Assembly: GCA_964187785.1 (NCBI GenBank)
Contig: OZ076409.1
Coordinates: forward strand, 71,550,001-71,614,000
Direction of reading: 5' to 3'
DNA from: Amphiscolops sp. MND2022
Lineage: Eukaryota
DNA length: 64,000 nt
Shown piece after piece: positions 1 through 64,000 of the stretch (the stretch's first letter is position 1; each line of letters opens with the position of its first letter). The notes under the pieces are model-generated. The model did not search any database and was not told the origin of the DNA. It saw nothing but the letters and a program-made list of their open reading frames with translations. The position numbers were made by a program, and so were the translations under genes.

Positions 1-176
1 CTTAACCGTTATTAGTCCTACCACCTATCATCAGCCTATGCCATGGCCCGGTGATTAGTAGTACAACGCCACATAAAGTAGCGACGCCCACAGTCTGTGG
101 GCATGCCGAGGCATGCCCTTCGACGACGTATGGCAATTTTAGCGTAGCCCGCGGTCACTACCGCGGTAGCAGCTAG
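1..176 (+). mobile_element. Right (3') end of an upstream unit, A-like; the array continues beyond the window start
   Basis: Core hairpin at 99-118 and terminal segment GCCCGCGGTCACTACCGCGGTAGCAGCTAG, which is also the end of the A unit finishing at 10301. Confidence 0.8.
99..118 (+). other. Invariant 3' subterminal hairpin GGGCATGCC-GA-GGCATGCCC (exemplar; 26 copies, one before each of junctions 1-26)
   Basis: Perfect 9-bp inverted repeat inside the conserved block GTCYGTGGGCATGCCGAGGCATGCCCTTCGACGAC, about 35-55 nt upstream of the terminal CTAG. Confidence 0.9.
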
Positions 177-2160
177 GTGGGCGGGGGTAATTCCCCAACA
201 AAAATTACGGCCGGCGGGTTGGGTCCTGCCGGACGTCAAATAGCAAAGAATATCTAGTAGGAAACGGCGACACAGAATCGCGATTTTTAAATCTAACCAC
301 AATTTTTTGGACTTGGAGTGCATGCGGCCCTGAATTGCCCATACGAATCGAAGTTCCTGCTGACATTAAGCGATTGAAATAATATATAGAAAGTTATGGC
401 CCATTTTTCACTCACAAAGAAGGGTAAAATGAGGAAATTTTTAACAAAGTCGCTGATAACTCAAAATGTGTTAATTTTTGGACATTGACTGTGAAACAAG
501 CTCGGAACCTTCATTTCGTGGCTGTGGCATTGCATTGAACACAAAAGATGTAAAGTTTTTACATTTTTTGAAAATTCTAAATTTTTGAAATTTTTTTCAC
601 TACTATCAGTACCCCATATGTCAAAAACGCCTCAGAAAAAATTTTTTATTTGCTTTAAATTGGAAACCTTGGTATCCATGGTTTCTGTCGGATCCTACTC
701 GCAGTCAAACACCCAACAGTTTGCATCCAATGTGGAAATAAAAATTTTTTCGGGGTCATAAGCGTTTCACAAGGATTTCTCAACTTAGTTTCAATTTACA
801 AATTGGTCACATTGAACACATTATTTTCATCGAAGCGCGACAGATACCGCCCTAAAGCTCACGAACGGTCCTACTGGCAACGTAGCAACCATTTATAGTA
901 ATATAAAAGATTAAAAAAATTTTTTCACCCGGTCTCCAGTCATTTTTCAGTCATTCGGAACTTAACTTAGAAAAATTTCGACCAAAATACCCATTTTTTG
1001 TCAGGTCGAAAAATCAAATTCACATTTTTAAGCAAAATTATTAACTCTGACGTAACTCATGGGGCCCATGATACTCAAAACAACGATTGACACTGGTATC
1101 AATGGCTCCAATAACATATGAGTCGCGATCGGACGTTATTTTGAGCAATACGTCTCAATTGAGGTAAAGATCTCGCAAGCCAGCGATCACTGTCAAATGT
1201 GATTTCATCAAAAATTTACTCATTTTTGTCAATCATTATGTGCACAGAATGCGTAGGGTGCGTTTCAGCACTATAATGAGATTTTTCAATGCATCGAGTT
1301 GCTCAAGGGGTGGTACGAGACATTTTTGTCTCATATACTACTGTATTTTCCAAAATTTTTAGCCCAATATCTGGAAATACAAACTTGACAAAATACTTTC
1401 AACTACTTTATTCAAAGGTTACAATATAGATGAACACTGTGGTTGATCAGAAACTTTCATCTCTTTCGTTTTCCGAAATATTTTCCTTCGCATGTGTTAT
1501 ATTTGTATCAGAAAAAAAACGAAACTGAAAAATACGCTATTTTGCTAATATAGAATCGCAATGATTGTGCCTAAAAACTCTTTAAACACTTCTAACGCAA
1601 CCTTACGCACCCAAAATGATCGAAAATGCTATTCACAATGGTGACATGTGCTCTTTCAACGATCCTGGCTGGACAAGGTTTGCATATTTTTCAAGTACCT
1701 GTCAGCTGAATCTTGTGATAGCCTTTTAAGTTGGCCTTGTGTCAACTTGGGAAGGCTATCACATCAAACAACCATCAACAAAAATAATTTTTGTTTATTG
1801 GATATTACAGTTGATACCTTATTTCGTGATTCTATACTACCGTTAGGATATTCCATGAGGTCACCTTACGATTGCATTCAGACTTTGATGAAAACCTATG
1901 AACTCAAAGTCACATTTATATATTTTTTGCCCAAAAAAATCATCAAAAACATCTAATATATATAAAATAGAGTCTTTAACTTTTTTACGTTTCAAGTTTC
2001 TGCCGTTATTAAGCCAATCAACTTCCTACAGCCACGCTCTCTGTCATACTGTACAACGCCACATAGTGTTGCGACGTGCACGGTCTGTGGGCATGCCGAG
2101 GCATGCCCTTCGACGACGTATGCCGAATACCGCGGGCCTACGCCCGCGCTCCCCGGCTAG
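177..2160 (+). mobile_element. Non-autonomous unit, family A (1984 bp)
   Basis: Bounded by CTAG|GTG junctions; colinear with 8313-10301, 44409-46408 and especially 46409-48391. Confidence 0.85.
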
Positions 2161-3540
2161 GTGGCGGGGGTGCCTCATGCCCCTCAAAAAATCACGAGCG
2201 CGGGTAGGGTCCTGCGCGAGTTCAAGAAGTGAAACATCGATATTTCGAAGCAACACTTTTGGAAGCTATCTTTTTTTTGAACCATACGATTTGAACCATT
2301 TTTTGCATGTGGCTTTGGAATCAGGTTATAAGAACTTTTTCCTGCTGACAGTTTAACCGGAAATCATTTGGTGTTGACTTTTGGCCAAAAAACCGGTTAT
2401 AACGTCGAAAATCAACGTTATATCCGAATTGTCGTCGTAACTTTTTTCCAGGGCGTCCTAGCGATTTTTGTTGCTCCTACATTGCGTTGCAGCATGTGAA
2501 AATACATCTGCTGTGAAATTTTGGTTGCAATCGGATCACCCCCCTCCGAGATTGAGGGGTACCCCCCTCCAATTTTACCCCCAAAATTTAGGAAAATGCC
2601 AATTTTGAGCATGAAGCTGTGGATTGAGCGTGTCCGCACCCTGCTGATGGATTGTCGGGCGCATTAAGGTGAATCCGATGACATGTGTAGTTATCACCCC
2701 CAACCCCCCCTGGGACCGGAAATGACCCTTTTATGTGTATTTTGACAGGAAGTTGTGGTTTTCAGTCGTAAGACGTTGTTTTATGTTCGCTTTACAGGGT
2801 ATCAAAGTTGAAACACAGCATGAGAACAACTTAGTGACCACATTTTGGCCAGTCGGGGGTAACGTAATTACCGGAAATAGGGTCGAAACCCCCCAAAATT
2901 GATGTTTTTTGACCATTATGACTCGTTTATTGATCACGTATAGGTCCGATAGGTCTCATTAACTATTGTCAAGATGAACAGCTGATCAATTAACGAAGTC
3001 TTAACGACGCTTTCAGAAACCGGAAGTTACCCCCTTGACCGGAAGTGGTCCATTTTGACCGGAAATGGTGCGAAAAATAGATCATAAACGTCTTTTTTGT
3101 TTAATTTCTGTATACTTTGTCAGATATTTTTGAAATTTTGAAGGTTGTGGTTGAAAGTAGGATTAAAAGACTGAATCGCTGCCGAATGATGATCACCTTT
3201 GTCACCCCCGATAGCCTTCCAAGTTGACTTGGGGTCAAGCTTGAAGGCTATCTGTTATGAAATCAAAAAACAAAGCAGAACCCCCTGTCCCCGTGGTTGT
3301 TAAATTCTGCTTAGATCAGTTCAATGCAGAGAGTACTTTGGTTAAGGTAAACAAATAGCGTTACTTTTACGTTTCTTATAGTTGTTCACCCCCACCCGCC
3401 AAAATTTCATGCACCTCCCCCCTCAGTACAACGCCACATAGCGTTTCGACGCCCACGGTCTGTGGGCATGCCGAGGCATGCCCTTCGACGACATATGCCA
3501 AATGAGCCTTTCCCGCACTCTGGAGTGCGGTAGCGGCTAG
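2161..3540 (+). mobile_element. Non-autonomous unit, family E (1380 bp, single copy in window)
   Basis: Same termini as the other units; distinct interior with an ACCGGAART cluster (3019-3066) and a GATAGCC-type hairpin (3210-3252). Confidence 0.8.
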
Positions 3541-6500
3541 GTGGGGGGGATATATCTCCACTTTTTTTGCGACCGCGGGTAGGGTCCTGTCGGGAGCTTC
3601 TATTTACCAAGCTTACGGCGCTATATACTAGAGAAAATTTTTCCGGCACCGAACTTTTTTTTGAACCATAGGATTTGTACCATTTTTTGCATGCGGCCCT
3701 AATTTGGGCATACAAGACGAAGTTCCTGCTGACGTTAAGCGATGGTTTCATTGTGTAACGAGATATAGCCACTTTTTGGTGCGATTTTTGAGGTATTTTT
3801 GAGAAACTTTTTACAAACAGCTCGAATGCAAAAAATTGAAAAACTTGTGACAATCGACCTATCACTGGTTTAAACCTTCGATTCTTTGCCCTAGCAATGC
3901 ACTAGACCCAAAAGATCTAAAACTTTTACATTTTCCAAAAATTTGACCAAATTGACTCGGGTTTCACTACTATATGTAACCAATGTGACAAAAACACCTC
4001 AGAAAAAAATTTTTATTTGCTTAAATTAAGAAACCTTGGTATCCATGGTTTCTGTCGGAACCTACTCGCAGCCAAACACTCAACAGTTTGCATCCAATGT
4101 GAATTTAAATTTTTTTTCGAGGTCATAGGTGTTTCACAAGGATTTCACAACTTAGTTTCATATTACAAATTGGTCATTTTCAACATCATATTTCCATCGA
4201 GGCATGTCGGATAGAGTCTTATTGCTTACGAACGGTCCTACTGGCAACGTTTTTACCATTTATAGAAATACAAAGTTATAAAAAAATTTTTTCACCCGTT
4301 CTTCCATCATTTTTCAGACATTCGGAACTTATCTTAGAAAAATTTCGTCTCAAAAACCCATTTTTTGTCAGGTCGAAAACTCAAATTCAGCTTTTTAAGC
4401 ACAATTATTAACTCTGACGTAACCAGTGGGGCCCATGATACTCAAAACAACGATTGGGGTTGGTACCATTGGCTCAAATAACATATGAGTCGCGATAAGA
4501 CGTTATTTTTAGCCATACGTCTCAATTGAGGTAAACATCTCGCAAGCCAGGGATCTCTGTGAAATGTGATTTCATCAAAAAGTTACCCAATTTCGCCAAT
4601 TAATATGTGCACAGAGTGCGTAGGGTGAGTTTCAGCACTATAATGAGGTTTTTGAAGGATTCGGGTTGCTCAAAGGGTGGTATGAGACATTTTTTTCCCA
4701 TATACTACTGTATTTTCCAAAAATTTTAGCCCATTATCTGGAAAAACTAACTTGAGAAAATACTTTCAGTTACTCTATTCGAAGCTTAGAATATAGATGA
4801 ACACTGTGGTTGATCAGAAACTATTAACTATTTTGTTTTTAGAAAAAAACTGCCTTGCATGTGTTACATTAGTGGCAGGAAAAACACCAGTAGCTCCAAA
4901 AATCAAAAATTTGGACGGACAGACTTCCAATGATGCAAAACAAAAACGTTTCAACAACTTCTGACGCCACTTTTTTTACCCAAGAGGTTCGAAAACACCA
5001 TTAACAATGCTGACATTCGCAATGAATAAGATCGAGGTCTATTTACTAACACTTAGGTTTTAAATTTTTTTCTCGGAAACCCATTATTGTCAGGTCGCAA
5101 ATTCAAATTTGGTTTTGGAAGCAATACTTTTCACTCTGAAGCAAACCGTTGGGCCCAAAATACTCAACAACAACAAAAAGACTATCACCATATGCTATAA
5201 TAACATATGAGATGCGACTGTATGTTTTTAACACAATAACTCTCATTCTGAAGTAAACATGTTGAAAGCCTTGAATCACCGTGAGAAGTGATTTCATCAA
5301 AAAATATTTCTTTTTCGTCAATCACTGAATACACAGAACCCGTTGTGTTAGTTTCAGTCGTGAAATGAGGTTCTACCGTAATATCGGTTGCTCAAGGTGT
5401 TGTATAAGGCAAAAACTTCCTCTTTTCTACTAACTTCTTCAAATATTTCAACCCTTTGTCACACGAATTTAATATTCAAAATCTCTTTGAATTGTTTCTT
5501 AAGGTTGTGGTGAATTGTTAGAACAATTACTAGGATCGAAGAATGCTAGTATTGGTGTTTGGACCATGTCCGGATGAACAAATCGCAAAATTAAGAAAAA
5601 ATTGTTTCCTTTTTTGGTTATTTTGGCAGTACTAAAAATGTTAGCTGATAAATAATTTTTTCGAAGGCACCATTGGATTCCGCTCAAAAAGTTGATTGTA
5701 AGACATGTGTAATAACCCCGTATCTTTTCAATTTAAATAAATTTAAAAAGCAAACTTTTTTGACGAAAATCCTAAAAATCATACCATTTCCTAAAAAATT
5801 TCAAATGCACTCCATTTGACGTATAAGAATAGCACAGAAAACTATCATATACCGATCAACTCTACTCCCATTGTAGACTATTAGAATTTTGTTTTGATTG
5901 AATTTTTGAAGAATATAAAAAAATTTTGAACCCTCCAAAAATGGACCAAAATTACACGAAAAAATTGACCTTAAAATTTTAAAATGTCAAAAAATCATCA
6001 AAACTACAGCTTCTTGGGGTTCTATCAACTCCACGTGGTCCACAGAGTACGCTAAAACAGGTTTTACCCGTTTTTGAGCAATATGTGAAAAAGCCGACAT
6101 TTTTGGGAAAGAAAAACATACCATTTCCTAAAATACTTCAAATGCACGCCATTTGCCGTATGAGAATAGCACAGAAAACTATCACATACCGATCAACTCT
6201 ACTTTCATTGTAGATGATTAGAAGTTAGTTTAAATGAAAATTAGACGAATAATAAAAAAATATAAATCCTCCAAAAGTGGGCAAAAATTACACGAAAAAA
6301 TTGTCCTTAAAATATTAAAATGTAGAAAAATCATCAAAACCACAGCTTCTTGGGGTTCTATCAACTCCACATGGTCCACAGAGTACGCTAAAACAGGTTT
6401 TACCCGTTTTTGAGCAATATGTGGAAAAACCGACATTTTTGGGAAAGAAAAACATAACATTTCCTAAAAAAATTCACATGCACGCCAATTGGCGTATAAG

Positions 6501-8312
6501 AATAGCACAGAAAACTATCATATACCGATCAACTCTACTCCTATTGTAGATTATTAGAACTTTGTTTTGAATGAATTTTGATGGATAATAAAAAATTTTG
6601 AACCCTCCGAAAATGGGCTAAAATTACACGAAAAAATTGACCCTAAAATTTTAAAATGTCTAAAAATCATCAAAACCACAGCTTCTTGAGGTTCTATCAA
6701 CTCCACATGGCCCACAGAGTATGCCAAACCAGGTTTTGCGCGTTTTTGAGCAAAATTTAGGAAAGCCGATTTTTTTTGAGGAAGAAAAACATATCATTTC
6801 CTAAAAAACTTTAAATGCACGCCATTTGGCGTATAACAATAGCACAGAAAACTATCACATACCAATCAACTCTACTCTTTTTGTAGATTACCAGAAGTTT
6901 GCTAAGAATAACTTTTGATGAATATTTATAAATTTTAAACCCTCCTAATATGGGCCAAAATCACACGGAAAAATTGACCCTAAGTATTAAAATGTCAGAT
7001 ATTCATCAAAACCCCAGCTTCTTGGGGTTCTATCATTTCCATATGACTTTCAGAGTATACCAAACAAGTTATTAACATTGGGCGATAATTAAAAAGACCA
7101 ATTTTATTCTGAAGAAAACCATAATATGTTCAATATAAGAAGTGAATCATTCCACATATATACCCTGTCTGATATTCTAAATTAGCAAAAATATATATAC
7201 TTGAAGTTTTTTGAATGTGAGCTTCATTAAAGGTTGAGATGTGATAATACGTAAATGGATTCCAAGTTTCATCGAAAAGTCAATGGAATAGGTCCAATCA
7301 ACTTCAATCTTAACAATTCGATAACAAAAAACACTTAAGTACATTCCATCTCCCTATCGGGGAGATGAGAATGTACTTTTCAAAAACTAAAAACTTAGAT
7401 CTTTCTATCTTTTGTAACACTTACTGTAACAGCTGAAATGATGAAAGAATAATTATTCTTCTAATAACTTCAAGATTTTTTGCTTCACCTTTCATTTCTG
7501 CAGAACAAAACCATAAGACATACATATTTTTCGCAGTTAAGTTCGACTGTATTACCCAGTGAACAAAGGTATGACAGGAAGATTACAAGTTGTCTCAAAA
7601 CTTTCCCGCCTTCCAAAATCATGAAACGTCTACACAACCAAGATAGTAAAGGAATGAATGTGGAATGCATCATTTTAGTTAAAATAAATAACGTGTAGAA
7701 CTTACCTTTATCTGAAGATGACGTTGATTTATGATCTTTAGAGGATAGTTCAATTTTTGACCATAATAGTGCGAAACTAATTATTATATGAATAATGGCG
7801 TGGAAAGCGTTCAGAAATTGCAGTATTTTCGATTCGAGCATGTATGCGTGGGTTCCTTTGGTGGCATTAGCTTAGTGTACATGATAGAAGTTTTCGATCT
7901 ATTATGATAAAATTTACTCACAAGTCTTTGTTTTTCCTATTTTTTTATGCCATTAAGTACATTCATTCTATCCCCTTCTCTGGGAATGTACGTTTGCCAA
8001 ATGACTGTCATCCAAATTTTGCATTCGCGAAGAGTTTAAATACATAAACACGTCTTTAGCGTTTCCAAATCACAACCGATTAACATTTTTTAAAATTTTT
8101 TTTTATGAAAATTGATAATTTGTTTTGATTTTGGTATCTTCTACTTTTATCATCCATCATAACAAGCACCTTACCATGTCTCTCGCTTGTCTTCATTTTA
8201 CAACGCCACATAGCGTTCCGACTCCCACCGTCTGTGGGCATGCCGAGGCATGCCCTTCGACGACGTATGCCAACTACTTTTTATATCTACACCCGATTGC
8301 GGTAGCGACTAG
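3541..8312 (+). mobile_element. Non-autonomous unit, family A' (4772 bp)
   Basis: First ~1.3 kb homologous to family A, then internal duplications and a distinct 3' part; second copy at 39645-44408. Confidence 0.85.
5781..7130 (+). repeat. Internal tandem repeat, about 4 x ~337 bp, within A'
   Basis: CATTTCCTAAAA...ATGCAC...AATAGCACAGAAAACTATCA...CAGCTTCTTGRGGTTCTATCA recurs from about 5781, 6118, 6455 and 6790; boundaries approximate. Confidence 0.8.
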
Positions 8313-10301
8313 GTGGGCGGGGGTAATTCCCCAACAAAAAAATCGGCCGGCGGGTCGGGTCCTGCCGGCCGTCCAAAATCAAAATTATACTAGTAGAAAA
8401 CGGCCGGTCAAACGAGCTATTTTTTTATTTAACCGTTAGAATTTGGGTTTAGATTGCATGCGGCCATGAAATGGCCATACGAATCGAAGTTCCTGCTGAC
8501 GTTTTGCGATTGAAACACTTTATAAAAAGTTATGGCCAATTTGTCAGTCACCTAGAAGGGCAAAATGAGGAAAATTTTAACAAAGTCGCTGATATCTCAA
8601 AATGTGTTAATTTTTGGACTTTGACTGTGAAACAAGCTTGGAACCTTCATTTCGTGGCTGTGGCATTGCACTGAACACAAAAGCTGTAAAGTTTTCACAT
8701 TTTTTGAAAATTCGACATTTTTGAAATTTTTTCACTACTATCAGTACCCCATATGTCAAAAACACCTCAGAAAAAATTTTTTATTTGCTTTAAGTTGGAA
8801 ACCTTGGTATCCATGGTTTCTGTCGGAACCTACTCGCAGCCAAACACCCAACAGTTTGCATCCAATGTGAAATAAAAAATTTTTTCGAGGTCATAAGCGT
8901 TTCACAAGGTTTTCATGATTTAGTATTAAATTACATAGTGGTCATTTTAAACATAAAATTTTGGTCCAGGCATGTCGGATATAGTCTGAATGCTCACGAA
9001 CGGTCCTACTGGCAACGTAGGAACCATTTATAGTAATAAAAAGTATTAAAAATTTTTTTTCACCCGGTCTTCAGTCATTTTTCAGATATTCGGAACTTAA
9101 CTTAGAAAATTTTCGAACCAAATACCCATTTTTTGTCAGGTCGAAAATTAAAATTCAGCTATTAAAGCAAAATTTTTTACTCTGACGTAACCAGTGGGGT
9201 CCATGATACTCAAAAATACGATTGGGACTGGTACCAATGGCTCCTATATCATATGAGCCGCGATAAGACGTTATTTTGAGCAATACGTCTCAATTGAGGT
9301 AAACATCTCGCAAGCCTGGGATCACAGTGAAATGTAATTTCATCAAAAAATTACTCATTTTCGTCAATGACTATGTGCATAGAGTGGGTAGGGTGAGTTC
9401 CAACACTATAATGAGGTTTTTGAAGGCATCGGGTTGCTCAAGGGGTGGTATGAGTCATTACTTTCCTATATACAACTGTATTTTCAAAAACTTTTAGCCC
9501 ATTATCTGGAAAAACTAACTTGACAAAATACTTTCAATTACTTTATTCAAAGGTTACAATATAGATGAACACTGTGGTTGATCAGAAACTTTCATCTCTT
9601 TCGTTTTCCGAAATAACTCCTTTCAAATGTGTTACATTTGTAGCAGGAAAAAAAACTGAAACTAAAAAATACGCAATTTTGCTGAGATAGAATCGCAATG
9701 GTTGCGCCTAAAATCTCTTTAAAAACTTCTAACGCAACCTTACGGACCCAAAATGATTGAAAATGCCATTCACAATGCTGACATGTGCTCTTTCTACGAT
9801 CCTGGCTGGACAAGTTTTGCATTTTTTTCAAGTACCTGTTAACTGAACATTGTGATAGCCTTTCAAGTTGGCCTTGTGTCAACTTGGGAAGGCTGTCACA
9901 TCAAAAAACTGTCAACAAAAATACCATTTGTTTATAGGATATTGCTGTCGATGCTTCACTTCGTGATTCGATCATGTCGTGAGTTCCTTCCATCAGGTCA
10001 GCTAACATTTGGATTCAGTGTTGGATAAGAACCTATGATTTTCATGACAATTTTCGTTTTTTTTTTGCCAACAAAAAGTACAAATAAATGATATAAAACA
10101 TATTTGTAACCTCTAGGAAGTTTAACTTTACCTTTTTTACCGTTACCATCTTAACCCACCCCCTACGACCTCGCAGTGTCCTCATTACAACGCCACATAG
10201 TGTAGCGACGCCCACAGTCTGTGGGCATGCCGAGGCATGCCCTTCGACGACGTATGGCAAATATAGCGTTAGCCCGCGGTCACTACCGCGGTAGCAGCTA
10301 G
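8313..10301 (+). mobile_element. Non-autonomous unit, family A (1989 bp)
   Basis: CTAG|GTG boundaries; colinear with 177-2160. Confidence 0.85.
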
Positions 10302-11585
10302 GTGGCCGTGTCTTTTCGACGTGCTTTTGCATTGAGGAGTGGGTAGGGCCCCGCGACGACCTAGAAGAATTGGATGCTCACCGAAACGTGCAGAATTCTA
10401 CGAGATCTCATAGTTTGAGCCATACGATTTTTCTGAAATTTGGCATGTGGCCTGGAATTGGTGAGTAGGTGAAACGTGTAGAAGGTAATTTTTCCCAAAT
10501 TCCACTGTGAGAGGAGATATGGGCAAATAACGGACCCAAAAATGGGGAAAATGCACTTTTTTCAAGTTTGTCAGCCAATATCTCTTTTCCAGGTGCCCGT
10601 AGCGTTCCGCACGTGGACATCAATATTGCTCAGCACTGTTGGAGGAGTGCGTGGACAAATTTTGGTTTAAATCGGACTGAAACTTGACGAGAAATTAACG
10701 GTTTTTTGGGCGTTTCCGGGGTAAATTTTTTAACGGTCCAGCTTATCTTTGCCATTTTTTCGAAAAGGTACATGCCTAAAGGCCTCCCCCTGGCCGAATT
10801 TACTCCCAGCAAACCCATTTGGCCCTAAATACGGAGTTTCAGCGTTCCAGCATTCCGGGGCGGAAAGTTGTGGGACTTGGAAAAATTTCAAAATTTTTTC
10901 AAAAAATTTTTTTCCCGTTTTCCGGGCCCCCAATGAAGGGGAACGACCCCCCAACCAGTATTTTGAGTGAATTCATGTGGAACGCCCATGTTTGGAGGAG
11001 AAAAATGCCGTTTAGCACATCTTTTTATCTTAACTTGACATTGACTTATGACGTTTTGAATGTGATGTTAGGATATATGAAGCATGTTAAAAGTTGAAGT
11101 TTTGAGTCTTTATCTCATCGGAAAACCATTGAGATACAAGCAGTTTTGCTAAAAACGATTTTCATTGTAGGTTAGCAGAGTATTAGTACACTTTGATGTC
11201 ATTTGAGTATTTTTTTCTTCTATATAATAACTGTTTTTATGTATTTATTCCAATTTATCTCATCTTTTAACATCAAGCAGTTGAGTACATTTCATCTCCC
11301 TTTCGGGGGAGATGAGAATGTACTCGCTAAAAACCTAATGCTATGGCGCCAATGTTTGGATGGGAAGTTTTCTATGCTTTGAAAAAAGTTATTTTTAATT
11401 ACTTGATTTTTTAAAACAATAATTAACATGAAGTACATTACTTGCTCCTACTACTACCACCATACATCTCTAACGTCAACACGCCCCCTGCTTGCATCAA
11501 CGCCCCATCGTCCGTGGGCATGCCGAGGCATGCCCTTCGACGACGTATGCCAAATGCCCAGTGCCACGCAGTCTTTCCCCGCTAG
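10302..11585 (+). mobile_element. Non-autonomous unit, divergent family C member (1284 bp)
   Basis: Shares CCTAAAGGCCTCCCCTGGCCG...CCATTTGGCCCTAAATACGGAGTTTCAGCGTTCCAGCATTC and the GAGTACATT hairpin (11283-11325) with units in 21450-31755. Confidence 0.8.
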
Positions 11586-37700: not shown

Positions 37701-39644
37701 TATTGGAGGATTCGGGTAGGGTCCTGAATCCGATTTTAACTCTAATAGCTATCGATAGGAAATCTTGCAAAAATTTCGGGATCTCGTGATCTAACCATAG
37801 GATTTTAAAGTTGGAGCGGCCCCCACCAGATTTTCCAAAGTTATTCGCCCCCCACCGGGTTCCAGCGTGATTGAAATATTTTGACGGGGTACACGGGCGA
37901 CCGTTAGGGGTCATTTTGGGGGTAAAATTTATATCCGGTCGCATAACTTTTTTCCTGTTGGTTTAAAACTTTGGGACCCTGCTAAAAGTTTCTTGACCGT
38001 GTTGCAGTGGCTCCGGAGGTCCAAACCAAATTTTTCTATCTTGAAGCTATCTCCAAGTACCCCCCCGCCCAAACCGTTATTTTTCCGGAAACGCAGGTTT
38101 TTGACCCGGAAGGAGTCGTCTGAGCGCGGGGTCGTTAGGTGATGTATTGGGGACGGCCTTGAGACGAAGCGGGGGACATGTAGTTTGCCGACCCCTGTTT
38201 ACCCCCCGGACGGGAAATGACCGTTATTTGAGCGGGAAAAATGCCCCCCTCCACGTTTTACCGCTATTTCCGGTGTGAAGGAGTAGGCGTAGCGCGTCGG
38301 GTGTTATATAACAAAAGTAGGTTTAGACAAGGACCTATCGGAAACATGTAGTTTGGGACCCCCTGGACCAACCCGTTAGCGGGAAATGGGGCTTCCGCCT
38401 CCTTTTTTTACTGCTAAAACCGTAAAATGGGCATTGAGGTGTAAATATCTCGTGAACGCGTGGAGCTACGGTGTCCATCACTACTACAAGGTTTCATACC
38501 CATGATATGGTGCCTTCAGGGGGCAAACAGATTTCCGCTATCTATCACCGTTACCGACTTGGCCCCCCAGCCTAACCGCTATGTGACCGGAAATGTCAAT
38601 TTTTGAGCCCAAAAGGTCGGTCCCAGCCGGGGAACGTTAGGTAACTTATTGTAGTACTCAATGAGACGAGTTGGGGGATATAGTTTCAGTCACCCCCCGT
38701 TACCCCTTGAGACCGGAAATGACCGTTATGTGGGTAAAATTGCTATTTTTATACTTTTTCAAGTGTATTTAGGTGCGGAAGGAGTGGTAATAGGTGCTTG
38801 GACACTATATGAGGTAAGGGAGGATATGAGGCGAGCATTCGGAAATAACCGTTATGTTGACCCCAAAGTCCCCCTGGTACCGTAAACGACCGGAAATGGT
38901 CAAATTTTGTGTTTAAAGGGTACAAATGTTTGGTGTTTTATGGATAACAGTGCCTATTAGGTGTTTCGACGGTCTGCAGTAGTGAACATAGTCATGAAAC
39001 CTTGTGGGGGGTAACGGTATATAGCACCGGAAGTCCAAACCGTTGGAGACAGGATAGGTTTTTTGGTTTTAAAATGTCTTTCGGCGTACTTTTGTCGACT
39101 ATTAAGGACTACTTTTAAAAATTAAAGTTTTTCCATATAGTTTTAGAGACTCCGAAACCTCAACCAACATAACCGTTACCTCATGATAGCCTTTCAAGTT
39201 GGCCTGGTGTCAACTTGGAAGGGCTATCCTTCAAAAATCGTCAATCAAGTGTGTTTTTGGGTATGTTTGTATCATTTTAGAATCAAATAGAGCTTCAAGA
39301 AAAGTTTGTCAACGACAAAAACTATGTCGTGATGATTCCGTTATTAGAATAATAGTTAGCAAATTGTTGAGAAAATTGATTTCTTCCATATAAAATGTGT
39401 CCTAATTGCCAGGAAACCTATTTAACTAACAAATGGTATTGATTGGAATGTATGTAACAGAGTTATAAAAGCTCAAATTGATTATTACGTTTCATTATGG
39501 AAGCTGAAACGTAATATTTTAGTTTAATTAACGTCAACGCCACACACTTTACATCAACGCCCACCGTCTGTGGGCATGCCGAGGCATGCCCTTCGACGAC
39601 GTATGGCAAATCCCTTCTAACGACGCCCGTACATCCCGGGCTAG
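31756..39644 (+). mobile_element. Four tandem family B units (starts 31756, 33730, 35700, 37675)
   Basis: Same sequence family as 11586-21449. Confidence 0.9.
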
Positions 39645-42600
39645 GTGGGGGGATATATCTCCACTTTTTTTGCGACCGCGGGTAGGGTCCTGTCGGGAGC
39701 TTCTATTTACCAAGCTTACGGCGCTATATACTAGAGAAAATTTTTCCGGCACCGAACTTTTTTTTGAACCATAGGATTTGTACCATTTTTTGCATGCGGC
39801 CCTAATTTGGGCATACAAGACGAAGTTCCTGCTGACGTTAAGCGATGGTTTCATTGTGTAACGAGATATAGCCACTTTTTGGTGCGAATTTTGAGGTATT
39901 TTTGAGAAAAATTTTACAAACAGCTCGAATGCAAAAAATTGAAAAACTTGTGACAATCGACCTATCACTGGTTTAAACCTTCGATTCTTTGCCCTAGCAA
40001 TGCACTAGACCCAAAAGATCTAAAACTTTTACATTATCCAAAAATTTGACCAAATTGACTCGGGTTTCACTACTATATGTAACCAATGTGACAAAAACAC
40101 CTCACAAAAAAATTTTTATTTGCTTAAATTTAGAAATTGTGGTATCCATGGTTTCTGTCGGAACCTACTCGCAGCCAAACACTCAACAGTTTGCATCCAA
40201 TGTGAATATAAAATTTTTTTCGAGGTCATAGGTGTTTCACAAGGATTTCACAACTTAGTTTCAATTTACAAATTGGTCATTTTCAACATCATATTTCCAT
40301 CGAGGCATGTTGGATAGAGTCTTATTGCTCACGAACGGTCCTACTGGCAACGTATTAACCATTTATAGAATTACAAAGTTATAAAAAAAATTTTTCACCC
40401 GTTCTTCAGTCATTTTTCAGACATTCGGAACTTATCTTAGAAAAATTTTGTCTCAAAAACCCATTTTTCGTCAGGTCGAAAATTGAAATTCACCTTTTTA
40501 TGCAAAATTCTTAACTCTGACGTAACCAGTGGGGCCCATGATACGCAAAAACACGATTGGGACTGGTATCAGTGGCTCCAATAACATATGATCCGCGATA
40601 AGACGTTATACAGAGCCAAACCTCTAAATCGAAGTAAACATCTCGCAAGCCTGGGATCACAGTGAAATGTGATTTCATCAAACATTTACCCATTTTCGTC
40701 AATTACTATGTGCACAGAGTGAGTAGAGTGAGTTTCAACACTATAATGAGGTTTTTGAAGGATTCGGGTTGCTCAAGGGGTGGTATGAGACATTTTTTTC
40801 CCATATACTACTGTATTTTCCAAAAATTTTAGCCCATTATCTGGAAGAACTAACTTGACAAAATACTTTCAGTGACTCTATTCCAAGCTTAGAATATAGA
40901 TGAACACTGTGGTTGATCAGAAACTATTAACTATTTTGTTTTCAGAAAAAAAACTGCATTGCATGTGTTACATTAGTGTCAGGAAAAATACCAGTAGCTC
41001 CAAAAATCACAAATTTGGACGGACAGACTTGCAATGATGCAAAACAAAAACGTTTCAACAACTTCTGACGCCATTTTTTTACCTAAGAGGTTCGAAAACA
41101 CCATTAAAAATGCTGACATTCGCAATAAATAAGATCGATGTCTTTTTACTAATATTTAGGTTTTAATTTTTTTTCTTGGAAACCCATTTTTGTCAGGTCG
41201 CAATTTCAAATTTGGTTTGGGAAGCAATACTTTTCACTCTGAAGCAAACCGTTGGGCCCAAAATACTCAAAAACAACAAAAAGACTATCACCATATGCTC
41301 TAATAACATATGAGATGCGACTGTATGTTTTTAACACAATAACTCTCTTTCTGAAGTAAACATGTTGAAAGCCTTGAATCACCGTGAGAAGTGATTTCAT
41401 CAAAAAATATTTCTTTTTCGTCAATCACTAAATACACAGAACCCGTTGTGTTAGTTTCAGCCGTGAAATGAGGTTCTACCGTAATATCGGTTGCTCAAGG
41501 TGTTGTATAAGGCAAAAACTACCTCTTTTCTACTAACTTCTTCAAATATTTCAACCCTTTGTCACACGAAGTTAATATTTAAAATCTCTTTGAAATGTTT
41601 CTTAAGGTTGCGGTGAAGTGTTAGAACAATAACTATGATCGAAGAATGCTAGTATTTGTAATTGGACCATGTCCGGATGAACAAATAGCAAAATCATTAA
41701 AAATTGTTTTCTTTTTTGGTTATTTTGGTAGTGCTAAAAATATTAGCCGATAAATAATTTTTTCAATGGCACCATTGGATTCCGCTTAAAAAGTTGGTTA
41801 TAGGACATGTGTAATAGCCCCGTATCTTTTCAATTTAAATGAATTTAAAAAGCCAACTTTTTTGACGAAAATCCTAAAAATCATACCATTTCCTAAAAAA
41901 TTTCTAATGCACCCCACTTGACGTATAAGAATAGCACAGAAAACTATCATATACCGATCAACTCTAATCCCATTGTAGAATATTAGAAATTTGTTTTGAT
42001 TGAATTTTGATGGATATTAAAAAAATTTGAACCCTCCAAAAATGGACCAAAATTACACGAAAAAATTGACCTTAAAATTTTAAAATGTCAAAAAATCATC
42101 AAAACCACAGCTTCTTGGGGTTCTATCAACTCCACGTGGTCCACAGAGTACGCTAAAACAAGTTTTACCCGTTTTTGAGCAATATGTGAAAAAGCCGACA
42201 TTTTTGGGAAAGAAAAACATACCAATTCCTAAAATATTTCAAATGCACGCCATTTGCCGTATGAGAATAGCACAGAAAACTATCACATACCGATCAACTC
42301 TACTTTCTTTGTAAATGATTAGAAATTAGTTCAAAACAAAATTTGACGGATAATTAAAAAATATAAATCCTCCAAAAATGGGCCAAAATTACACGAAAAA
42401 GTTGTCCTTAAAATTTTAAAATGTCAAAAAATCATCAAAACCACAGCTTCTTGGGGTTCTATCAACTCCACATGGTCCACAGAGTACGCTAAAACAGGAT
42501 TTACCCGTTTTTGATCAATATGTGGAAAAGCCGACATTTTTGGGAAAGAAAAACATAACATTTCCTAAAAAAATTCAAATGCACGCCATTTGGCGTATAA

Positions 42601-44408
42601 GAATAGCACAGAAAAATATCATATACCGATCAACTCTACTCCCATTGTAGATTATTAGAACTTTGTTTTGAATGAATTTTGATGGATATTAAAAAATTTT
42701 GAACCCTCCGAAAATGGGCTAAAATTACACGAAAAAAATGACCCTAAATTTTTAAAATGTCAAAAAATCATCAAAACCACAGCTTCTTGGGGTTCTATCA
42801 ACTCCACATGACCCACAGAGTATGCCAAACCAGGTTTTGCGCGTTTTTGAGCAATATTTAGGAAAGCCGATTTTTTTGAGGAAGAAAAACAGCATTTCCT
42901 AAAAAAACTTCAAATGCACGCCATTTGGCGTATAACAATAGCACAGAAAACTATCACATACCAATCAACTCTACTCTTTTTGTAGATTACCAGAAGTTTG
43001 CTTAGAATAAAATTTTTTGAACATTTATAAATTTTAAACCCTCCTAATATGGGCCAAAATCACACGGAAAAATTGACCCTAAGATATTAAAATGTCAGAA
43101 ATTCATCAAAAACCCAGCTTCTTGGGGTTCTATCATTTTCATATGACTTTCAGAGTATTCCAAACAAGTTATTAACATTGGGCGATAATTAAAAACACCA
43201 ATTTTATTCTACAAGAAAACCAAAATATGTTCAATATAAGAAGTGAATCATTCCACATATATACCCTGTCTAATATTTTGAATTCGCGATAAAATATATA
43301 CTTGATGTTTTTTGAATGTGAGCTTCATAAGAGGTTGAGATGTGATGATGCGTAAATGGATTCCAAAATTCATCGAAATGTCAATGGAATACGTCCAATC
43401 AACTTCAATGTTAACAATTAGATAACTAAAACCACTTAAGTACATTCCATCTCCCCATCGGGGAGATGAGAATGTACTTTTCAAAAACCAAAAACTTAGA
43501 TCTTTCTATCTTTTGTAACACTTACTGTAACTGCTGAAATGGTGAAAGAATAATTATGCTTCTAATAACTCCATGATTTTTTGCTTCAGATTTTATTTCT
43601 GCAGAACAAAACCATAAAACATATTTTTCGCAGTTAAGTTCAATTGTATTACCCAGTGAACAAAGGTATGACAGGACGTTTACATAAGTTGTTTCAAAAT
43701 TATCAAGGCCTTCCAAAATCATGAAACGTCTACACAACCAAGATAGCAAATGAATGAATGCGGATTGCATCTTGTTAGATAAGATAAATAACGCGTAGAA
43801 CTTACCTTTATCTGAAGATGAGGTTGATTTATGATCTTTAGAGGATAGTTCAGTTTTTGACCATAATAGTGTGAAACTAACAATTAGATGAATAATGGCG
43901 TGGAAAGCGTTCAGAAATTGCAGTATTTTGGATTCTAGCATGTATGCGTGGGTTCCATTGATGGCGTTAGCTTAGTGTACATGTTGGAAGTTTTCGATCT
44001 ATTATGATGAAAATTACTCACAAGTCTTTGTTTTTCCTATTTTTTATGCCATTAAATACATTCATTCTATCCCCTTCTCTGGGAATGTATGTTTGCCAAA
44101 TGACTGTCAACCAAATTTTGCAATCCCGAAGAGTTTAAACACATAAACACGTCTTTAGCGTTTCCAAATCACAACCGATTAACATTTTTTAAAATTTTTT
44201 ATGAAAATTAGTAATTTGTTTTGATTTTGGTATCTTCTACTTTTATCATCCATCATAACAAGCACCTTACCATGTCTCTCGCTTGTCTTCATTTTACAAC
44301 GCCACATAGCGTTCCGACTCCCACCGTCTGTGGGCATGCCGAGGCATGCCCTTCGACGACGTATGCCAACTACTTTTTATATCTACACCCGATTGCGGTA
44401 GCGGCTAG
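39645..44408 (+). mobile_element. Non-autonomous unit, family A' (4764 bp)
   Basis: Colinear with 3541-8312 end to end. Confidence 0.85.
41882..43230 (+). repeat. Internal tandem repeat, about 4 x ~336 bp, within the second A' copy
   Basis: Same repeat unit as 5781-7130; boundaries approximate. Confidence 0.8.
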
Positions 44409-47400
44409 GTGGGCGGGGAAATTTCACCCCGTTTGTATTCGGCCGACGGGTAGGGTCCTGGCGGCCGACGATCCGCCTTAAGCTAGCGGTATGTAGCAGA
44501 AATTGCAAAAAAAAAACCTAAAATTTAATCTAACCATTAGAATTTGCTCAAAATTTGCATGCGGCCCTCAAATCCTATTGCAAGACGAAGTTCCTGCTGA
44601 CGCTAAGCGTTCTAAAAACTTTATAAAAAGTTATGGCCAATTTTTTGTTCAAAATTTCAACATTTTTGGGAAATTTCTAATTTTTCACTTAATATCTCAA
44701 AATGTGTTAATTTTTGGACTTTGACTGTGAAACAAGCTTGGAACCTTCATTTCGTGGCTGTGGCATTGCACTGAATACAAAAGATGTAAAGTTTTTACAT
44801 TTTTTGAAAATTCGAGATTTTTGAAATTTTTTTTACTACTATCAGTACCCCATATGTCAAAAACACATCAGAAAAAAATTTTTTTTTGCTTTAAACTGAA
44901 AACCTTGGTATCCATGGTTTCTGTCGGAACCTACTCGCTGCCAAACACCCAACAGTTTGCATCCAGTGTGAATTAAAAATTTTTTTCGAGGTCTTAGGTG
45001 TTTCACAAGGATTTCTCAACTTGGTTTTAAATAACAAATTAGTCATTTTGAACACAATATTTTCATCGAGGCTTGTCGGCTATAGTCTTAATGTTATAGA
45101 ACGGTCCCACTGGCAACGTAGGAACCATTTATAGTAATAAAAAGTTTTAAAAAAATATTTTCACCCGGTCTTCAGTCATTTTTCAGTCATTCGGAACTTA
45201 ACTTAGAAAAATTTCGACACAAAAACCCATTTTGTGTCAGGTCGAAAATTCAAATTCAACTATTGAAGTGAAATTATTTACTCTGACGTAACCAGTGGGG
45301 CCCATAATACTCAAAAACACAAGTGGGACTGGTATCAGTGGCTTCAATAACATATGAGTCGCGATAAGACGTTATTCAGAGCAAAACCTCTAAATCGGAG
45401 TAAACATGTCGGAAGCCTGGGATCACAGTGAAATGTGAGATCACCAAAAGTTTACACATTTTTGTCAATTACTATGTACACAGAGTGCATAGGATGAGTT
45501 TCAGCACTATAATGAGGTTTTTGAAGTAATCGGCCTGCTCAAGGGGGTGTATGAGACATTTTTTTCCCATATAGTACTGCATTTCCTAAATTTTTAGCCC
45601 ATTATCTCAAAAACCTACCTTCGCAAATTGCTTCCAATTACTTTATTCTAAGGTTAGAATATGGATGAACACTGTGGTTGATCAGAACCTCTCAGTTTTT
45701 TTGTTTTCCGAAATAATACCTTCGCATGGGTTACATTTATGGCAGAAGAAAAAGCAGAATCTAAAAAATACGCTATTTTGCTAAGATAGAAACGCGATGA
45801 TTGTGCCTAAATACTCTTTAAATACTTCTAACGCAAACTTATGGATCCAATATGATTGGAAATACCGTTCACAGTCCTCACATGTTTTCTTTCTACAATC
45901 CAGACTGCATAATTTTTGAAAATTTTACATGTAGCTTTACACTGAATCTTGTGATAGCCTTTCAAGTTGGCCTTGTGTCAACTTGGGAAGGCTATCACCA
46001 CAAAAAACTATAAACAAAACTACCATGTGTTTATTGGATTTTGCTGTCGATGCCTATTTTCGTAATTTGATCCTATCGTTAGATCCTTTCATCAGGTCAG
46101 CTAACGATTGCTTTCAGTGTTTGATAAGAACCTATGAACTTGAAGACAATTTTCTTTTTTTTCTTTACAAAAATTAAAAACAAATAATTAAAAAAACCTA
46201 ATTGAAACCACTAGGAAGTATACCTTCTATCTTTTCTACCGTTATCATCCCCAGCCATCCCCTACGTCCTTGCAATGTATGTCCTTATTACAACGCCGCG
46301 TCACATAGCGTTCCGACGCCCATAGTCTGTGGGCATGCCGAGGCATGCCCTTCGACGACGTATGGCAAAGGAGCCCTAACCCGCACTCTGGAGTGCGGTA
46401 GCAGCTAGGTGGGCGGGGGTAATTCCCCTTCAAAAAATTCGGCCGGCGGGTTGGGTCCTGCCGGACGTCAAATAGTGTGAAACATCCAGTAGGAAACGGC
46501 GACATAAATCAGCGATTTTAAAATTTAACCGTTAGAATTCGGACTTGGAGTGCATGCGGCCCCAAAATGCCCATACGAATCGAAGTTCCTGCTGACGTTA
46601 AGCGATAAAAACACTTTATAAAAAGTTATGGCCCATTTTACGTTCACTTAGAGAGGTAAAATGAGGAAATTTTTAACAAAGTTGCTGATAACTCAAAATA
46701 CATTAATTTTTGGACTTTGACTGTGAAACAAGCTTGGAACCTTCATTTCGTGGCTGTGGCATTGCACTGAACACAAAAGATGTAAAGTTTTCACATTTTT
46801 TGAAAATTCGACATTTTTGATTTTTTTTTCACTACTATCAGTACACTATATGTCAAAAACACCTCTGAAAAAATTTTTATTTGCTCAAATTTAGAAACCT
46901 CGGTATCCATGGTTTCCGTCAGTACCTACTCGCTGCAAAACGCTCAACAGTTTGCATCCAATGTGAAAATAAAATTTTTTTGGAGGTCTTAGGTGTTTCA
47001 CAAGGATTTCTCAACTTAGTATCAATTTACAAATTGGTCATTTTGAACACATTATTTCCATCGAAGCTTGTCGGCTATAGCCTTAATGTTCTAGAACGGT
47101 CTCACTGGCAACGTAGGAACCATTTATAGTAATAGAAAGTTTTAAAAAAAATTTTTCACCCGGTCTTCAGTCATTTTTCAGTCATTCGGAACTTAACTTA
47201 GAAAAATTTCGACCAAAATACCCATTTTTTGTCAGGTCGAAAAATCAAATTCAGCTTTTTAAGCAAAATTATTAACTCTGACGTAACCCATGGGGCCCAT
47301 GATACTCAAAACAACGATTGACACTGGTATCAGTGGCTCCAATAACATTTGAGTCGCGATAAGACGTTACTTTGAGCAATACGTCTCAATTGAGGTAAAG

Positions 47401-48391
47401 ATCTCGCAAGCCAGCGATCACTGTGAAATGTGATTTCATCAAAAATTTACTCATTTTTGTCAATCACTATGTGCACAGAATGCGTAGGGTGCGTTTCAGC
47501 ACTATAATGAGGTTTTTGAAGGTATCGAGTTGCTCAAGGGGTGGTATGAGACATTTTTGTCCCATATACTACTGTATTTTCCAAAATTTTTAGCCCAATA
47601 TCTGGAAATACAAACTTGACAAAATACTTTCAACTACTTTATTCAAAGGTTACATTATAGATGAACACTGTGGTTGATCAGAAACTTTCATCTCTTTCGT
47701 TTTCCGAAATATTTCCCTTCGCATGTGTTACATTTGTAGCAGAAAAAAAAATCGAAACTGAAAAATACGCTTTTTTGCTAATATAGAATCGCAATGATTG
47801 TGTCTAAAAACTCTTTAAACACTTCTAACGCAACCTTACGCACCCAAAATGATCAAAACTGCTATTCACAATGGTGACATGTGCTCTTTCAACGATCCTG
47901 ACTGAACAATTTTCGCAAATTATTCAAGTACCTGTTAACTGAATCTCGTGATAGCCTTTTCAGTTGGCCTTGTGTCAACTTGGGAAGGCTATCACATCAA
48001 AAAATTTTCAACAAAATTTTTTTTTGTTCATTGGAAATGACAGTCGATATATAATTTCGTGATTCTATACTACCGTTAGTACCTTCCATTAAGTCACCTG
48101 ACGATTGCATTCAGTCTTTGATAAATACCTATGAACTCGAATTCATATTTATTAATTTTGTGCTAAAAATAAACATCAAAATTATCCAAATTATTCAAAA
48201 TTGAGTCTTTACCGTTTTTATTTTTCTTTTTCTACTGTTATTAGGCCCATCAACTTCCTACAGCCACGCTCTCTGTCATTAGTACAACGCCACATAGTGT
48301 TGCGACGTGCACAGTCTGTGGGCATGCCGAGGCATGCCCTTCGACGACGTATGCCGAATACCGCGGGCCTACGCCCGCGCTCCCCGGCTAG
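44409..48391 (+). mobile_element. Two tandem family A units (44409-46408, 46409-48391)
   Basis: Colinear with 177-2160; the second has the same terminal segment as 177-2160. Confidence 0.85.
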
Positions 48392-51300
48392 GTGGTCAAG
48401 GGGGATGCCCATCAGAAAATATTGCGAGGCCGGGGAGGGTCCCGAGAGCCGAGCACATTCTATCAATTCCTACCTTCAGGATTGCGAAGTATTTTAACCG
48501 ATCTCGAAATTCACCCGTAGGATTTGTCTGAAACTTTGCATGTGGCTTTATCTCAAAAATTTAAGAATTTTTTTCTGCTGACGTTTTTCCAGGAAAATTC
48601 ATTTTGTAGGGTTTTTTTGGGTTTTTTTGGTTTTTTTCATCTTTTTTCATCTTTGATTAATCAATGACCGAATCAAAGGCCATTTTCACCATGAAGGAAA
48701 GCCCGTAGCGGCAAAGTGCACTTTTATGAAAATCATCAACGGTCAACGGTCTTTCGAACGGTCCGAAAAAATTTCCCCCCGGGGGAAACCAAAGTGCCGA
48801 AAAGTGCCAAAATTATTTTTTTGACTGAATCACTTTGATCAAATTGATGATTTGAGCAGCCGGAACGGTCCGCACGGTCTCGGACAATAAGGTCAAAAAT
48901 TGTCAGCATCCAATGGGGGTTCCAAAAATGTAATTCGTTCACCTGTAGGAGACATCAGAAAAAAGTTGATTTTTTGGGGTATATGTCATTATGAGTGATT
49001 GGATGAGAAATAATTGTATCACTTTCAGTTGGATATGATGCAGCACAGGAAGCAGCTGCAGCAAACTTGAAACTGATTATGGGGCTGGGGTTTACCCTCT
49101 GTATCGAGCAAAACAGCCCTAGGGCATAAGTTGTGCCAAAAAATGCCTCAAAGTGATGATTAGGTTATTGCAAATCGTTCAGCAAAATTTATTGTCACCG
49201 GTGTTCCGAGAGTTGCGCAGCATCTCGCAGGAACAACGGTGCTTGCTTAGAAAGCAAAAAACCACAAAATCCCTTGAGTTAAGTTGACGGCAGTCACCAT
49301 AGACATTCACTCGTCAGGGTGATGATATTTATCGTTCAATCCCAGAATAACTTACAAAAAATTGCTAGCCTCAATATTTCTTTTTCATACTCCATTAGCA
49401 AAGGTTGCGCTGTTAAGTTTAGGCCTTTTACTAGCAGTGCTCTAAATCGCTCCATCGCTAGGTGGTCAAGGGGGATGCCCATCAGAAAATATTGCGAGGC
49501 CGGGGAGGGTCCCGAGAGCCGAGCACATTATATCAATTCCTACCTTCAGGATTGCGAAGTATTTTAACCGATCTCGAAATTCACCCGTAGGATTTGTCTG
49601 AAACTTTGCGTGTAGCTTTATCTCAAAAATTTAAGAATTTTTTTCTGCTGACGTTTTTCCAGGAAAATTCATTTTGTAGGGTTTTTTTGCGTTTTTTTGG
49701 TTTTTTTCATCTTTTTTCATCTTTGATTAATCAATGACCGAATCAAAGGCCATTTTCACCATGAAGGAAAGCCCGTAGCGGCAAAGTGCACTTTTATGAA
49801 AATCATCAACGGTCAACGGTCTTTCGAACGGTCCGAAAAAATTTCTCCCCGGGGGAAACCAAAGTGCCGAAAAGTGCCAAAATTATTTTTTTGACTGAAT
49901 CACTTTGATCAAATTGATGATTTGAGCAGCCGGAACGGTCCGCACGGTCTCGGACAATAAGGTCAAAAATTGTCAGCATCCATTGGGGGTTCCAAAAATG
50001 TAATTCGTTCACCTGTAGGAGACTTCAGAAAGAAGTTGATTTTTTGGAGTTTTGGCATTATGAGTGATTGGATGAGAAATAATTGTATCACTTTCAGTTG
50101 GATATGATGCAGCACAGGAAGCAGCTGCAGCAAACTTGAAACTGAATATGGGGCTGGGGTTTACCCTCTGTATCAAGCAAAATAGCCCTAGGGCATAAGT
50201 TGTGCCAAAAAATGCCTCAAAGTGATGATTAAGTTATTGCAAACCGATTAGCAAAATTTCTTGTCACCGGTGTTCCGAGAGTTGCGCAGCATCTCGCAGG
50301 AACAACGGTGCTTGGTTAGAAAGCAAAAAACCACAAAATCCCCTGAGTTAAGTTGACGGCAGTCACCATAGACATTCACTCGTCAGGGTGATGATATTTA
50401 TCGTTCAATCCCAGAATAACTTACAAAAAATTGGTAGCCTCAATATTTCTTTTTCATACTCCATTAGCAAAGGTTCCGCTGTTCAGTTTAGGCCTTTTAC
50501 TAGCAGTGCTCTAAATCGCTCCATCGCTAGGTGGTCAAGGGGGATGCCCATCAGAAAATATTGCGAGGCCGGGGAGGGTCCCGAGAGCCGAGCACATTCT
50601 ATCAATTCCTACCTTCAGGATTGCGAAGTATTTTAACCGATCTCGAAATTCACCCGTAGGATTTGTCTGAAACTTTGCATGTGGCTTTATGACAAAAATT
50701 TAAGAACTTTTTTCTGCTGACGTTTTTCCAGGAAAATTCATTTTGTAGGGTTTTTTTGCGTTTTTTTGGTTTTTTTCATCTTTTTTCATCTTTGATTAAT
50801 CAATGACCGAATCAAAGGCCATTTTCACCATGAAGGAAAGCCCGTAGCGGCAAAGTGCACTCTTATGAAAATCATCAACGGTCAACGGTCTTTCGAACGG
50901 TCCAAAAAAATTTCCCCCCGGGGGCAATCAAAGTGCCGAAAAGTGCCAAATTTATTTTTTCGACTGAATCACTTTGATCAATTTGATGATTTGAGCAGCC
51001 GGAACGGTCCGCACGGTCTCGGACAATAAGGTCAAAAATTGTCAGCATCCAATGGGGGTTCCAAAAAAGTAATTTGTTCACCTTTAGGAGACATTTGAAA
51101 AAAGTTGATTTTTTGGAGTTTTGGCATTATGACTGATCGGATGATAAATCATTGCATCACGTTGAGTTGCAATTGATGCAGCACACGAAGCAGCTGCAGC
51201 GGACTTGAAACTGCTTAGGGGGTTGGGGTTTACTATCTGTAACAAGCAAAATATCCCTTGGGCAAAAGGTATGCCAAAAAGTGCCTCAAAGTGTTAATTA

Positions 51301-63999: not shown

Positions 64000-64000
64000 T

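Follow-up and report, generated by a model that had tools for sequence, protein, structure and literature searches.

Mixed head-to-tail arrays of a divergent Helitron lineage joined at CTRG^GTG in Amphiscolops sp.

Results and discussion

The 64,000-nt window of the Amphiscolops sp. MND2022 genome analysed here (C1:71.55–71.61 Mb of 1.07 Gb) lies inside a same-strand array of approximately 6 Mb, in which dozens of different Helitron-type units follow each other end to end (Table 1). We propose that these units belong, as autonomous or non-autonomous members, to a divergent Helitron lineage, and that the mixed arrays grow by the integration of single units into resident unit junctions by a helicase-fused Rep transposase (RepHel), a reading to which we assign a probability of roughly 0.7.

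Unrelated units are joined at one exact position

The sequence CTAGGTG is present 30 times on the plus strand of the window and once on the minus strand, with about 3 copies expected from base composition, and 29 copies bear terminal motifs and represent unit junctions. The copy at 53816 was rejected as a junction, as it has neither terminal motif and is a chance match inside the autonomous element. A first-pass annotation of the window had described 29 junctions at which unrelated units change partner inside this heptamer, and alignment of junction pairs confirmed this, with the positions it gave for individual switches (2161, 48392, 3541, 39645, 21449, 11585, 31755 and 10301) all being exact. 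Where two junctions had one partner in common, their sequences on the side of that partner matched as far as the heptamer, and those on the other side diverged within 4–8 nt. The A>E and A>D junctions are identical for 78 nt upstream of the cut and 4 nt downstream, B>C and B>B for 94 nt upstream and 4 nt downstream, and C>B pairs for 7 nt upstream and 18 nt downstream, while the upstream identity of E>A′ and B>A′ is 6 nt only. The unit types proposed in the annotation do switch at the heptamer, but its type C lumps three body families, and the unit at 26603–27884 within the C-type run belongs to another family.

The same junction was found throughout approximately 845 kb of array-containing stretches, where all 252 called junctions read CT(A/G)G|GTG(G/C), with CTAG in 216 and CTGG in 36. 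Since the junction caller demanded CTnGGTG, the conserved 3′ core of the units served as control. Such a junction came after 182 of the 185 cores, with two array ends and one broken case making up the rest. Leave-one-out prediction on 222 typed junctions assigned the base at position 3 (A or G) correctly from the upstream family in 202/205, and the base at +4 from the downstream family in 192/203. The autonomous unit ends in CTGG in both of its copies, and position 3 thus belongs to the upstream unit.

Element ends and host target sites

The elements run exactly from GTG to CTRG, and the cut is at CTRG^GTG without target duplication. A solo insertion (L091) reads ATGTCC|GTG...CTAG|TTCAAG in host DNA, and as neither flank supplies a G, this element is exactly GTG...CTAG. 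The corresponding empty site, ATGTCCTTCAAG, was present at six of seven paralogous loci, the seventh having been missed by the search key. Clean empty sites were also obtained for four further insertions: L080 (13 copies), L083 (6 copies), a solo at C1:37.45 Mb (7/7) and L096, where two insertions occupy two CTAG^NT sites located 17 bp apart. No empty site was found among the loci compared for L094, L110 and L112, for which no genome search was made. The first-pass annotation had assumed a cut at CTAG^GTG without target duplication and had attributed the junctions to enzymatic nick-and-join; the flanking bases dictated by the upstream and downstream families, and the boundary fixed by the solo with its empty paralogues, support this. 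A target-site duplication was rejected, with CTAG upstream and CTGG downstream of the autonomous unit and with the empty sites being clean, as was a cut at CTAGG^TG (5′ of T, in analogy with HLE1 Helitrons), with the base after the right end varying between sites (A, T or G).

Right ends of one tail type were followed by a base other than G in 52 cases (control 7), and the next bases of the 40 examined were AT (30), TT (7) or other (3). Sixteen 5′ ends with non-element flanks, including four from a search demanding non-G and one flank that may be an element tail, were preceded by CTAG (7), CTTG (2), GTCC (2), TTTA (2), CTGG, ATAT and ATTT, with a T at the second position in 16/16. These flanks of solos and array ends show that the host target is loose, approximately (C)TN(G)^DT (such as GTCC^TT, CTTG^AT and CTAG^AT), and resembles the element's own junction.

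Several dispersed copies have features of their own. The solo at C1:37447615–37448870 (L023) ends in CTTG and its array relatives in CTAG, and its last bases resemble the left flank of the target, which may represent a subfamily trait or target-templated repair. Many dispersed copies (L073–L112) match the unit library over their last 60–700 bp only, yet have the exact 3′ joint CTAG^NT, a hint that joining may begin at the 3′ end; one of them (L076) is 63 bp long and 100% identical, and another (L103), of about 17 bp, is located in a repeat resembling a short interspersed nuclear element (SINE), with apparent target loss. A tRNA-like SINE or tandem repeat with a period of approximately 258 bp (L123–L132), containing GCTAGCTAGAT, took at least one full insertion.

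The autonomous element, its RepHel protein and the terminal signals

The only long open reading frame (ORF) of the window encodes a RepHel protein with Pfam matches to Helitron_like_N (5e-8) and PIF1 (2e-6), and this Helitron-type enzyme, whose gene lies in one of the units of the array itself, is the one left unnamed in the first-pass annotation. The structural model of the Rep region (mean predicted local distance difference test score, pLDDT, of 74.9) matched the Helraiser structure 7LCC with a Z-score of 16.3 and a root-mean-square deviation (rmsd) of 3.8 over 321 aligned residues at 15% identity (Foldseek E 5.7e-7), with the next structure at Z 5.5. The match to the GIY-YIG domain is below the Pfam cut-off in the window protein, and above it in 6/9 homologues scanned. 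The window copy has an F for the first Y, and an A where others have an R before L-x-x-HN, both being residues with catalytic roles in GIY-YIG domains, and the domain is missing from some autonomous members, suggesting that it may be dispensable.

The autonomous element has CTGG|GTG at its right end, and a copy on C4 is 99.6% identical with other neighbours on both sides. A 3-kb family has the same ends, and the remaining units belong to the same kind of element but are non-autonomous. Ten units of >11 kb with a junction at both ends were found, and the RepHel genes inside the arrays look intact.

The exact 3′ core was present in 26 copies in the window and 4239 copies in the genome, and is absent from D units and some other families, which still join at the same base. 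Approximately 40 nt into the units is a 5′ hairpin, of which the stem varies by family and the loop GGG(T/G)AGGG(T/C)CC is kept, with one small family lacking the hairpin. Stem pairing of at least 5 bp was present in 58/89 heads, compared to 12 on average, and 23 at most, in 200 partner swaps. The hairpin is likely to be the recognition site of the transposase, and is the best candidate for a targeting signal beyond the motif itself. In several A-type tails the final 45 nt have a folding energy of −9 to −13 kcal/mol, and in many families they fold weakly. An inverted terminal match of 8–12 nt is found in some families, with short matches only in most.

Units move singly and land in junctions

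The 237 sampled units (<21 kb) represent 42 body families, and 109 kinds of heterologous junction were found among 146. The closest relative of a unit was adjacent in 15/212 cases and located in another stretch in 135/212, while adjacent units of the same family have a median identity of 91%, with ≥99% in only 1/68 pairs. Among 66 near-identical pairs (≥98.5%, all neighbours known), 60 had no near-identical neighbour in common, six had one and none had both. As the neighbours of near-identical pairs mostly differ, units move singly, landing precisely between others.

The right ends of one tail type were followed by GTG in 2004/2090 copies, by GT and a non-G base in 34 and by a non-G base in 52, a count that leaves out ends followed by G and a non-T base, and that includes some host GTG (such as at L149). 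Host DNA was estimated to contain ~5.6 million CTNG^DT sites and ~1.1e5 CTRGGTG sites (extrapolated from 160 kb of flanks), compared to an estimated 6,500–6,900 junctions genome-wide. Host sites thus vastly outnumber junctions, and the motif alone cannot account for the bias towards junctions.

Based on Helraiser and IS91 biochemistry, RepHel would nick the plus strand at CTRG^GTG, peel off one unit and circularise it, with the circle junction again reading CTRG^GTG. A resident junction, followed by the conserved-loop hairpin ~40 nt downstream, would look like the circle origin and hence be the best acceptor, and every insertion would make two junctions from one, giving polar, self-amplifying arrays that may be common to transposases which are only 30–50% identical. 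Rare insertions into host sites would seed new arrays.

Alternative explanations

The precise joints could also result if RepHel acted mainly as a site-specific recombinase between arrays or circles, either by first forming mixed multimers or by swapping cassettes at junctions. This would give equally precise junctions, and would fit the few recurring two-unit blocks (6/66 pairs) and the enrichment of same-family runs. We consider it unlikely, since near-identical units mostly differ in both neighbours, young units are located next to relatives of 87–91% identity, and the solos with clean empty sites demonstrate that insertion of single units does happen. Slightly less likely again is that insertion needs the loose (C)TN(G)^DT motif only, with arrays built up by hopping over short distances, by a preference for certain chromatin and by the disappearance of dispersed copies. 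Solos throughout the genome do obey this motif, and there are a few insertions inside array units, one of these on the opposite strand. However, the unit bodies are rich in such motifs, yet 182/185 cores end at a junction, and junctions constitute ~0.1% of the motif sites but receive ~96% of the counted right ends. Furthermore, closest relatives are usually found in other stretches, and this genome has its HLE1-like elements in dispersed positions.

Rolling-circle concatemers with terminator read-through and unequal crossing-over in the terminal cores, as proposed for homotypic Helitron arrays, would explain the single-family runs, the B units with A-like tails and the 18/165 units with a tail unlike that of their closest relative. 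This is improbable as the origin of the arrays and is largely refuted by the neighbour analysis, given the single pair of 68 adjacent same-family units with ≥99% identity, the joining of families without the core (D and others) at the same base, and the 109 junction types seen, as crossing-over in the bodies cannot make new ones. Given the 18 deviating tails, some homologous exchange within the 3′ core, which the first-pass annotation had set against nick-and-join, probably occurs as well, but leaves the junctions unexplained. A misassembly of repeats joined at the common motif is hardly credible: the locus was analysed in assembled sequence, but heterologous neighbours have only ~7 nt in common at the joint, the pattern is present on more than one contig, with termini and empty sites that make biological sense, and a 336-kb contig on record encodes a protein with an identical Rep region.

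Several observations weigh against integration of single units into junctions as the complete explanation. Neighbours of the same family were found 76 times versus 36 in shuffles, and this twofold excess, together with the 6/66 pairs with a common neighbour, shows that read-through or local duplication contributes. Tails are sometimes swapped (18/165, scored against the closest relative), and a few dimers recur. Neither the tail upstream nor the head downstream stood out as the targeting side (no asymmetry, p 0.46–0.94), and insertion was not caught in the act, with no X|Y versus X|Z|Y polymorphism seen within an array. The inspection of autonomous copies covered those picked inside known arrays, and the search demanding non-G and the host GTG included in the end counts belong here as well.

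A clade apart from HLE1-like and HLE2-like proteins in quick trees

The array proteins and their database homologues formed one long-branch group, apart from the HLE1-like and HLE2-like proteins of the same genome, and this separation was found in combined, Rep and helicase trees with a Shimodaira-Hasegawa-like approximate likelihood ratio (SH-aLRT) support of 100. These were quick, unrooted trees with long-branch warnings, with references labelled by Pfam pattern only, and including two HLE1-like and three to five HLE2-like (DUF6570-bearing) proteins from the own genome. The DUF6570 domain was found in 0/10 proteins of the clade versus 6/6 HLE2-like Rep proteins of the same genome. The genome also contains dispersed transposases of the HLE1-like type and several of the HLE2-like type (with DUF6570, OTU and JAB domains) (L189–L234).

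A full protein scan found 335 clusters with E values of at most 1e-30, of which the best 150 have 26–97% identity, and the names of the clusters looked up were uninformative; the ESM Atlas gave generic Helitron clusters only. Among four metagenome loci, two distinct elements that are 25–27% identical to the query have the loop motif upstream of the coding region, with one of these elements having CTGG|GTA about 50 nt before it, and no array was visible in those contigs. The presence of the 5′ loop motif in such distant relatives suggests that recognition may follow an old code used throughout the lineage. A 1.4-kb metagenome contig (L239) has 69–79% DNA identity to array units, which indicates that a related organism carries close families. 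Relatives were not found in viral contigs, prokaryotic genomes or metagenomes queried with one Joint Genome Institute (JGI) protein, the pattern scans used being insensitive. We lean, if only slightly, towards the wider view that, besides HLE1 and HLE2, this is another major lineage of Helitrons (RepHel-GIY-YIG, with hundreds of clusters at 50% identity), in which the transposases have one conserved junction in common as origin, terminus and integration site, and in which dozens of families build communal, integron-like cassette arrays of megabase size.

Comparison with known systems

HLE1 elements are described as TC...CTRR inserted at A^T, and HLE2 elements as having TT ends with inverted repeats (PMC11417382), while Helraiser is reported to make circles with a precise plus-strand junction, which is then cleaved (PMC5876387). 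The array elements have in common with HLE1 and Helraiser the HUH and two-tyrosine RepHel, a CTRR-type 3′ end, the lack of target duplication, an exact head-to-tail joint and a 7LCC-like Rep fold, as far as these are described (PMC4778049, PMC5876387, PMC11417382). They differ from HLE1 in their 5′ GTG rather than TC, their (C)TN(G)^DT rather than A^T target, a Rep with 12–15% identity to Helraiser in structural alignments and placed in a separate clade, the GIY-YIG tail of the lineage, and the location of nearly all counted copies in mixed arrays. The long ORF (2200–2850 aa), the 5′ hairpin and an OTU domain in one homologue are similar to HLE2 (Helitron2 or Helentron), for which a GIY-YIG domain is described in one Sphagnum element. 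Fusarium FoHeli1/2 are reported to prefer four bases left of the insertion site (TNAT) and to show self-insertions (PMC5148889). Unlike HLE2, the array lineage lacks DUF6570, TT ends, a T^T target and a consistent long subterminal inverted repeat, and forms a separate clade.

The targets reported for the IS91 family (CTTG, GTTC, GTCC and CTCG) have a T at position 2, and IS91 elements are thus similar to the array elements in having a tetranucleotide target like their own terminal cleavage site, next to their HUH-Y2 rolling-circle chemistry (PMC13181058). In contrast to the array RepHel, which is helicase-fused, IS91 transposases are prokaryotic and lack a helicase.

Plant centromeric and bat Helitron arrays are reportedly also head-to-tail, according to papers citing them. 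A heterologous head-to-tail Helitron pair at maize r1 was ascribed to consecutive insertion (PMC2267711), and Hydractinia subtelomeric Helitron repeats are described as head-to-tail (PMC11934779). Heterologous head-to-tail Helitrons and self-insertions were already on record, as occasional events in these accounts (PMC2267711, PMC5148889). Such cases are occasional pairs or the amplification of single families, whereas the arrays described here have exact junctions by the thousand and comprise no fewer than 42 families. The Paramecium Helitrons are, by their description, a third clade besides HLE1 and HLE2, whose polar and target-biased insertion creates a compartment of the genome, but they target telomeric repeats and end in CCAA (PMC13085455). 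The literature search, which did not extend to Repbase, the HELIANO supplements or the bulk of subscription papers, all of which could hold members of the clade, found no account of the termini described here or of near-obligate junction targeting at this scale.

Helitrons are described as inserting at dinucleotides, and a lineage landing almost only at joints of its own kind would constitute another route to megabase-sized repeats, which is neither satellite amplification nor targeting of host genes, and which would provide a safe haven common to many families. It would also bring the target logic of IS91 into a eukaryotic element, and provide an integrase from nature that is site-specific, makes no duplication and uses an attachment site that is short and defined. 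Annotation tools that seek TC...CTRR or TT ends would miss these termini.

Genome-wide distribution and organisation of the window

Nearly all of the first 100 listed of the 4239 core copies were located in same-strand clusters. The C1 array starts at 70,454,838, directly after a host CTAG, and 10-kb samples between C1 70.8 and 76.475 Mb had plus-strand junctions in 9/10 and minus-strand junctions in none; the array is interrupted at 76.005 Mb, and samples at 76.5, 76.6 and 76.8 Mb were negative. This array contains 34/118 RepHel matches (C1:70.5–76.5 Mb), all on the plus strand and mostly 30–50% identical to the window protein, and further RepHel clusters are present on C2 and C3.

Table 1. 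Features of the 64,000-nt window (positions within the window)
Feature	Position	Strand	Details
A-family unit, 3′ end	1..176	+	array extends leftward to ~C1:70.455 Mb
A-family unit	177..2160	+	non-autonomous, 1984 bp
3′ core (example)	2089..2117	+	perfect palindrome GGGCATGCC-GA-GGCATGCCC plus TTCGACGAC
Junction (example)	2157..2163	+	CTAG^GTG, cut between 2160 and 2161
E unit	2161..3540	+	1380 bp
A′ unit	3541..8312	+	4772 bp; internal tandem repeat of ~340 bp
A-family unit	8313..10301	+	1989 bp
C-related unit	10302..11585	+	1284 bp; separate body family
B units (5)	11586..21449	+	1971–1976 bp; mutually non-identical
5′ hairpin (example)	11619..11642	+	family-specific stem, conserved loop GGG(T/G)AGGG(T/C)CC
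C-type units (8)	21450..31755	+	1282–1292 bp; flanked by two B runs
B units (4)	31756..39644	+	
A′ unit	39645..44408	+	4764 bp
A-family units (2)	44409..48391	+	
D units (3)	48392..51600	+	~1070 bp; without 3′ core palindrome
Autonomous element	51601..64000	+	14,083 bp; runs 1683 bp past the window end
RepHel ORF	54677..62257	+	2526 aa, uninterrupted
HUH motif	58622..58633	+	PHIH (H1317, H1319)
Two-tyrosine motif	59141..59155	+	YIAKY (Y1489, Y1493)
Walker A motif	60503..60526	+	Pif1-like helicase
GIY-YIG-like domain	61925..62110	+	C-terminal

A tRNA scan of the window found none. Units between 8313 and 48391 follow a nested order (A..[B x5 [C x8] B x4]..A), which may reflect the splitting of earlier runs by later units. 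Two arrays converge at C1:23.978 Mb (C1:23.96–24.02 Mb), and at C2:102.0–103.9 Mb and C3:2.4–3.9 Mb the orientation of the RepHel genes flips, with the arrays mostly diverging from the centre; the C2 array reaches the contig end. The only inverted unit seen within the C1 array is an A unit on the opposite strand at C1:72444500–72446500 (L152/L153, L114), which interrupts an A′ unit at TTTA^GT, ~20 bp inside its 5′ end.

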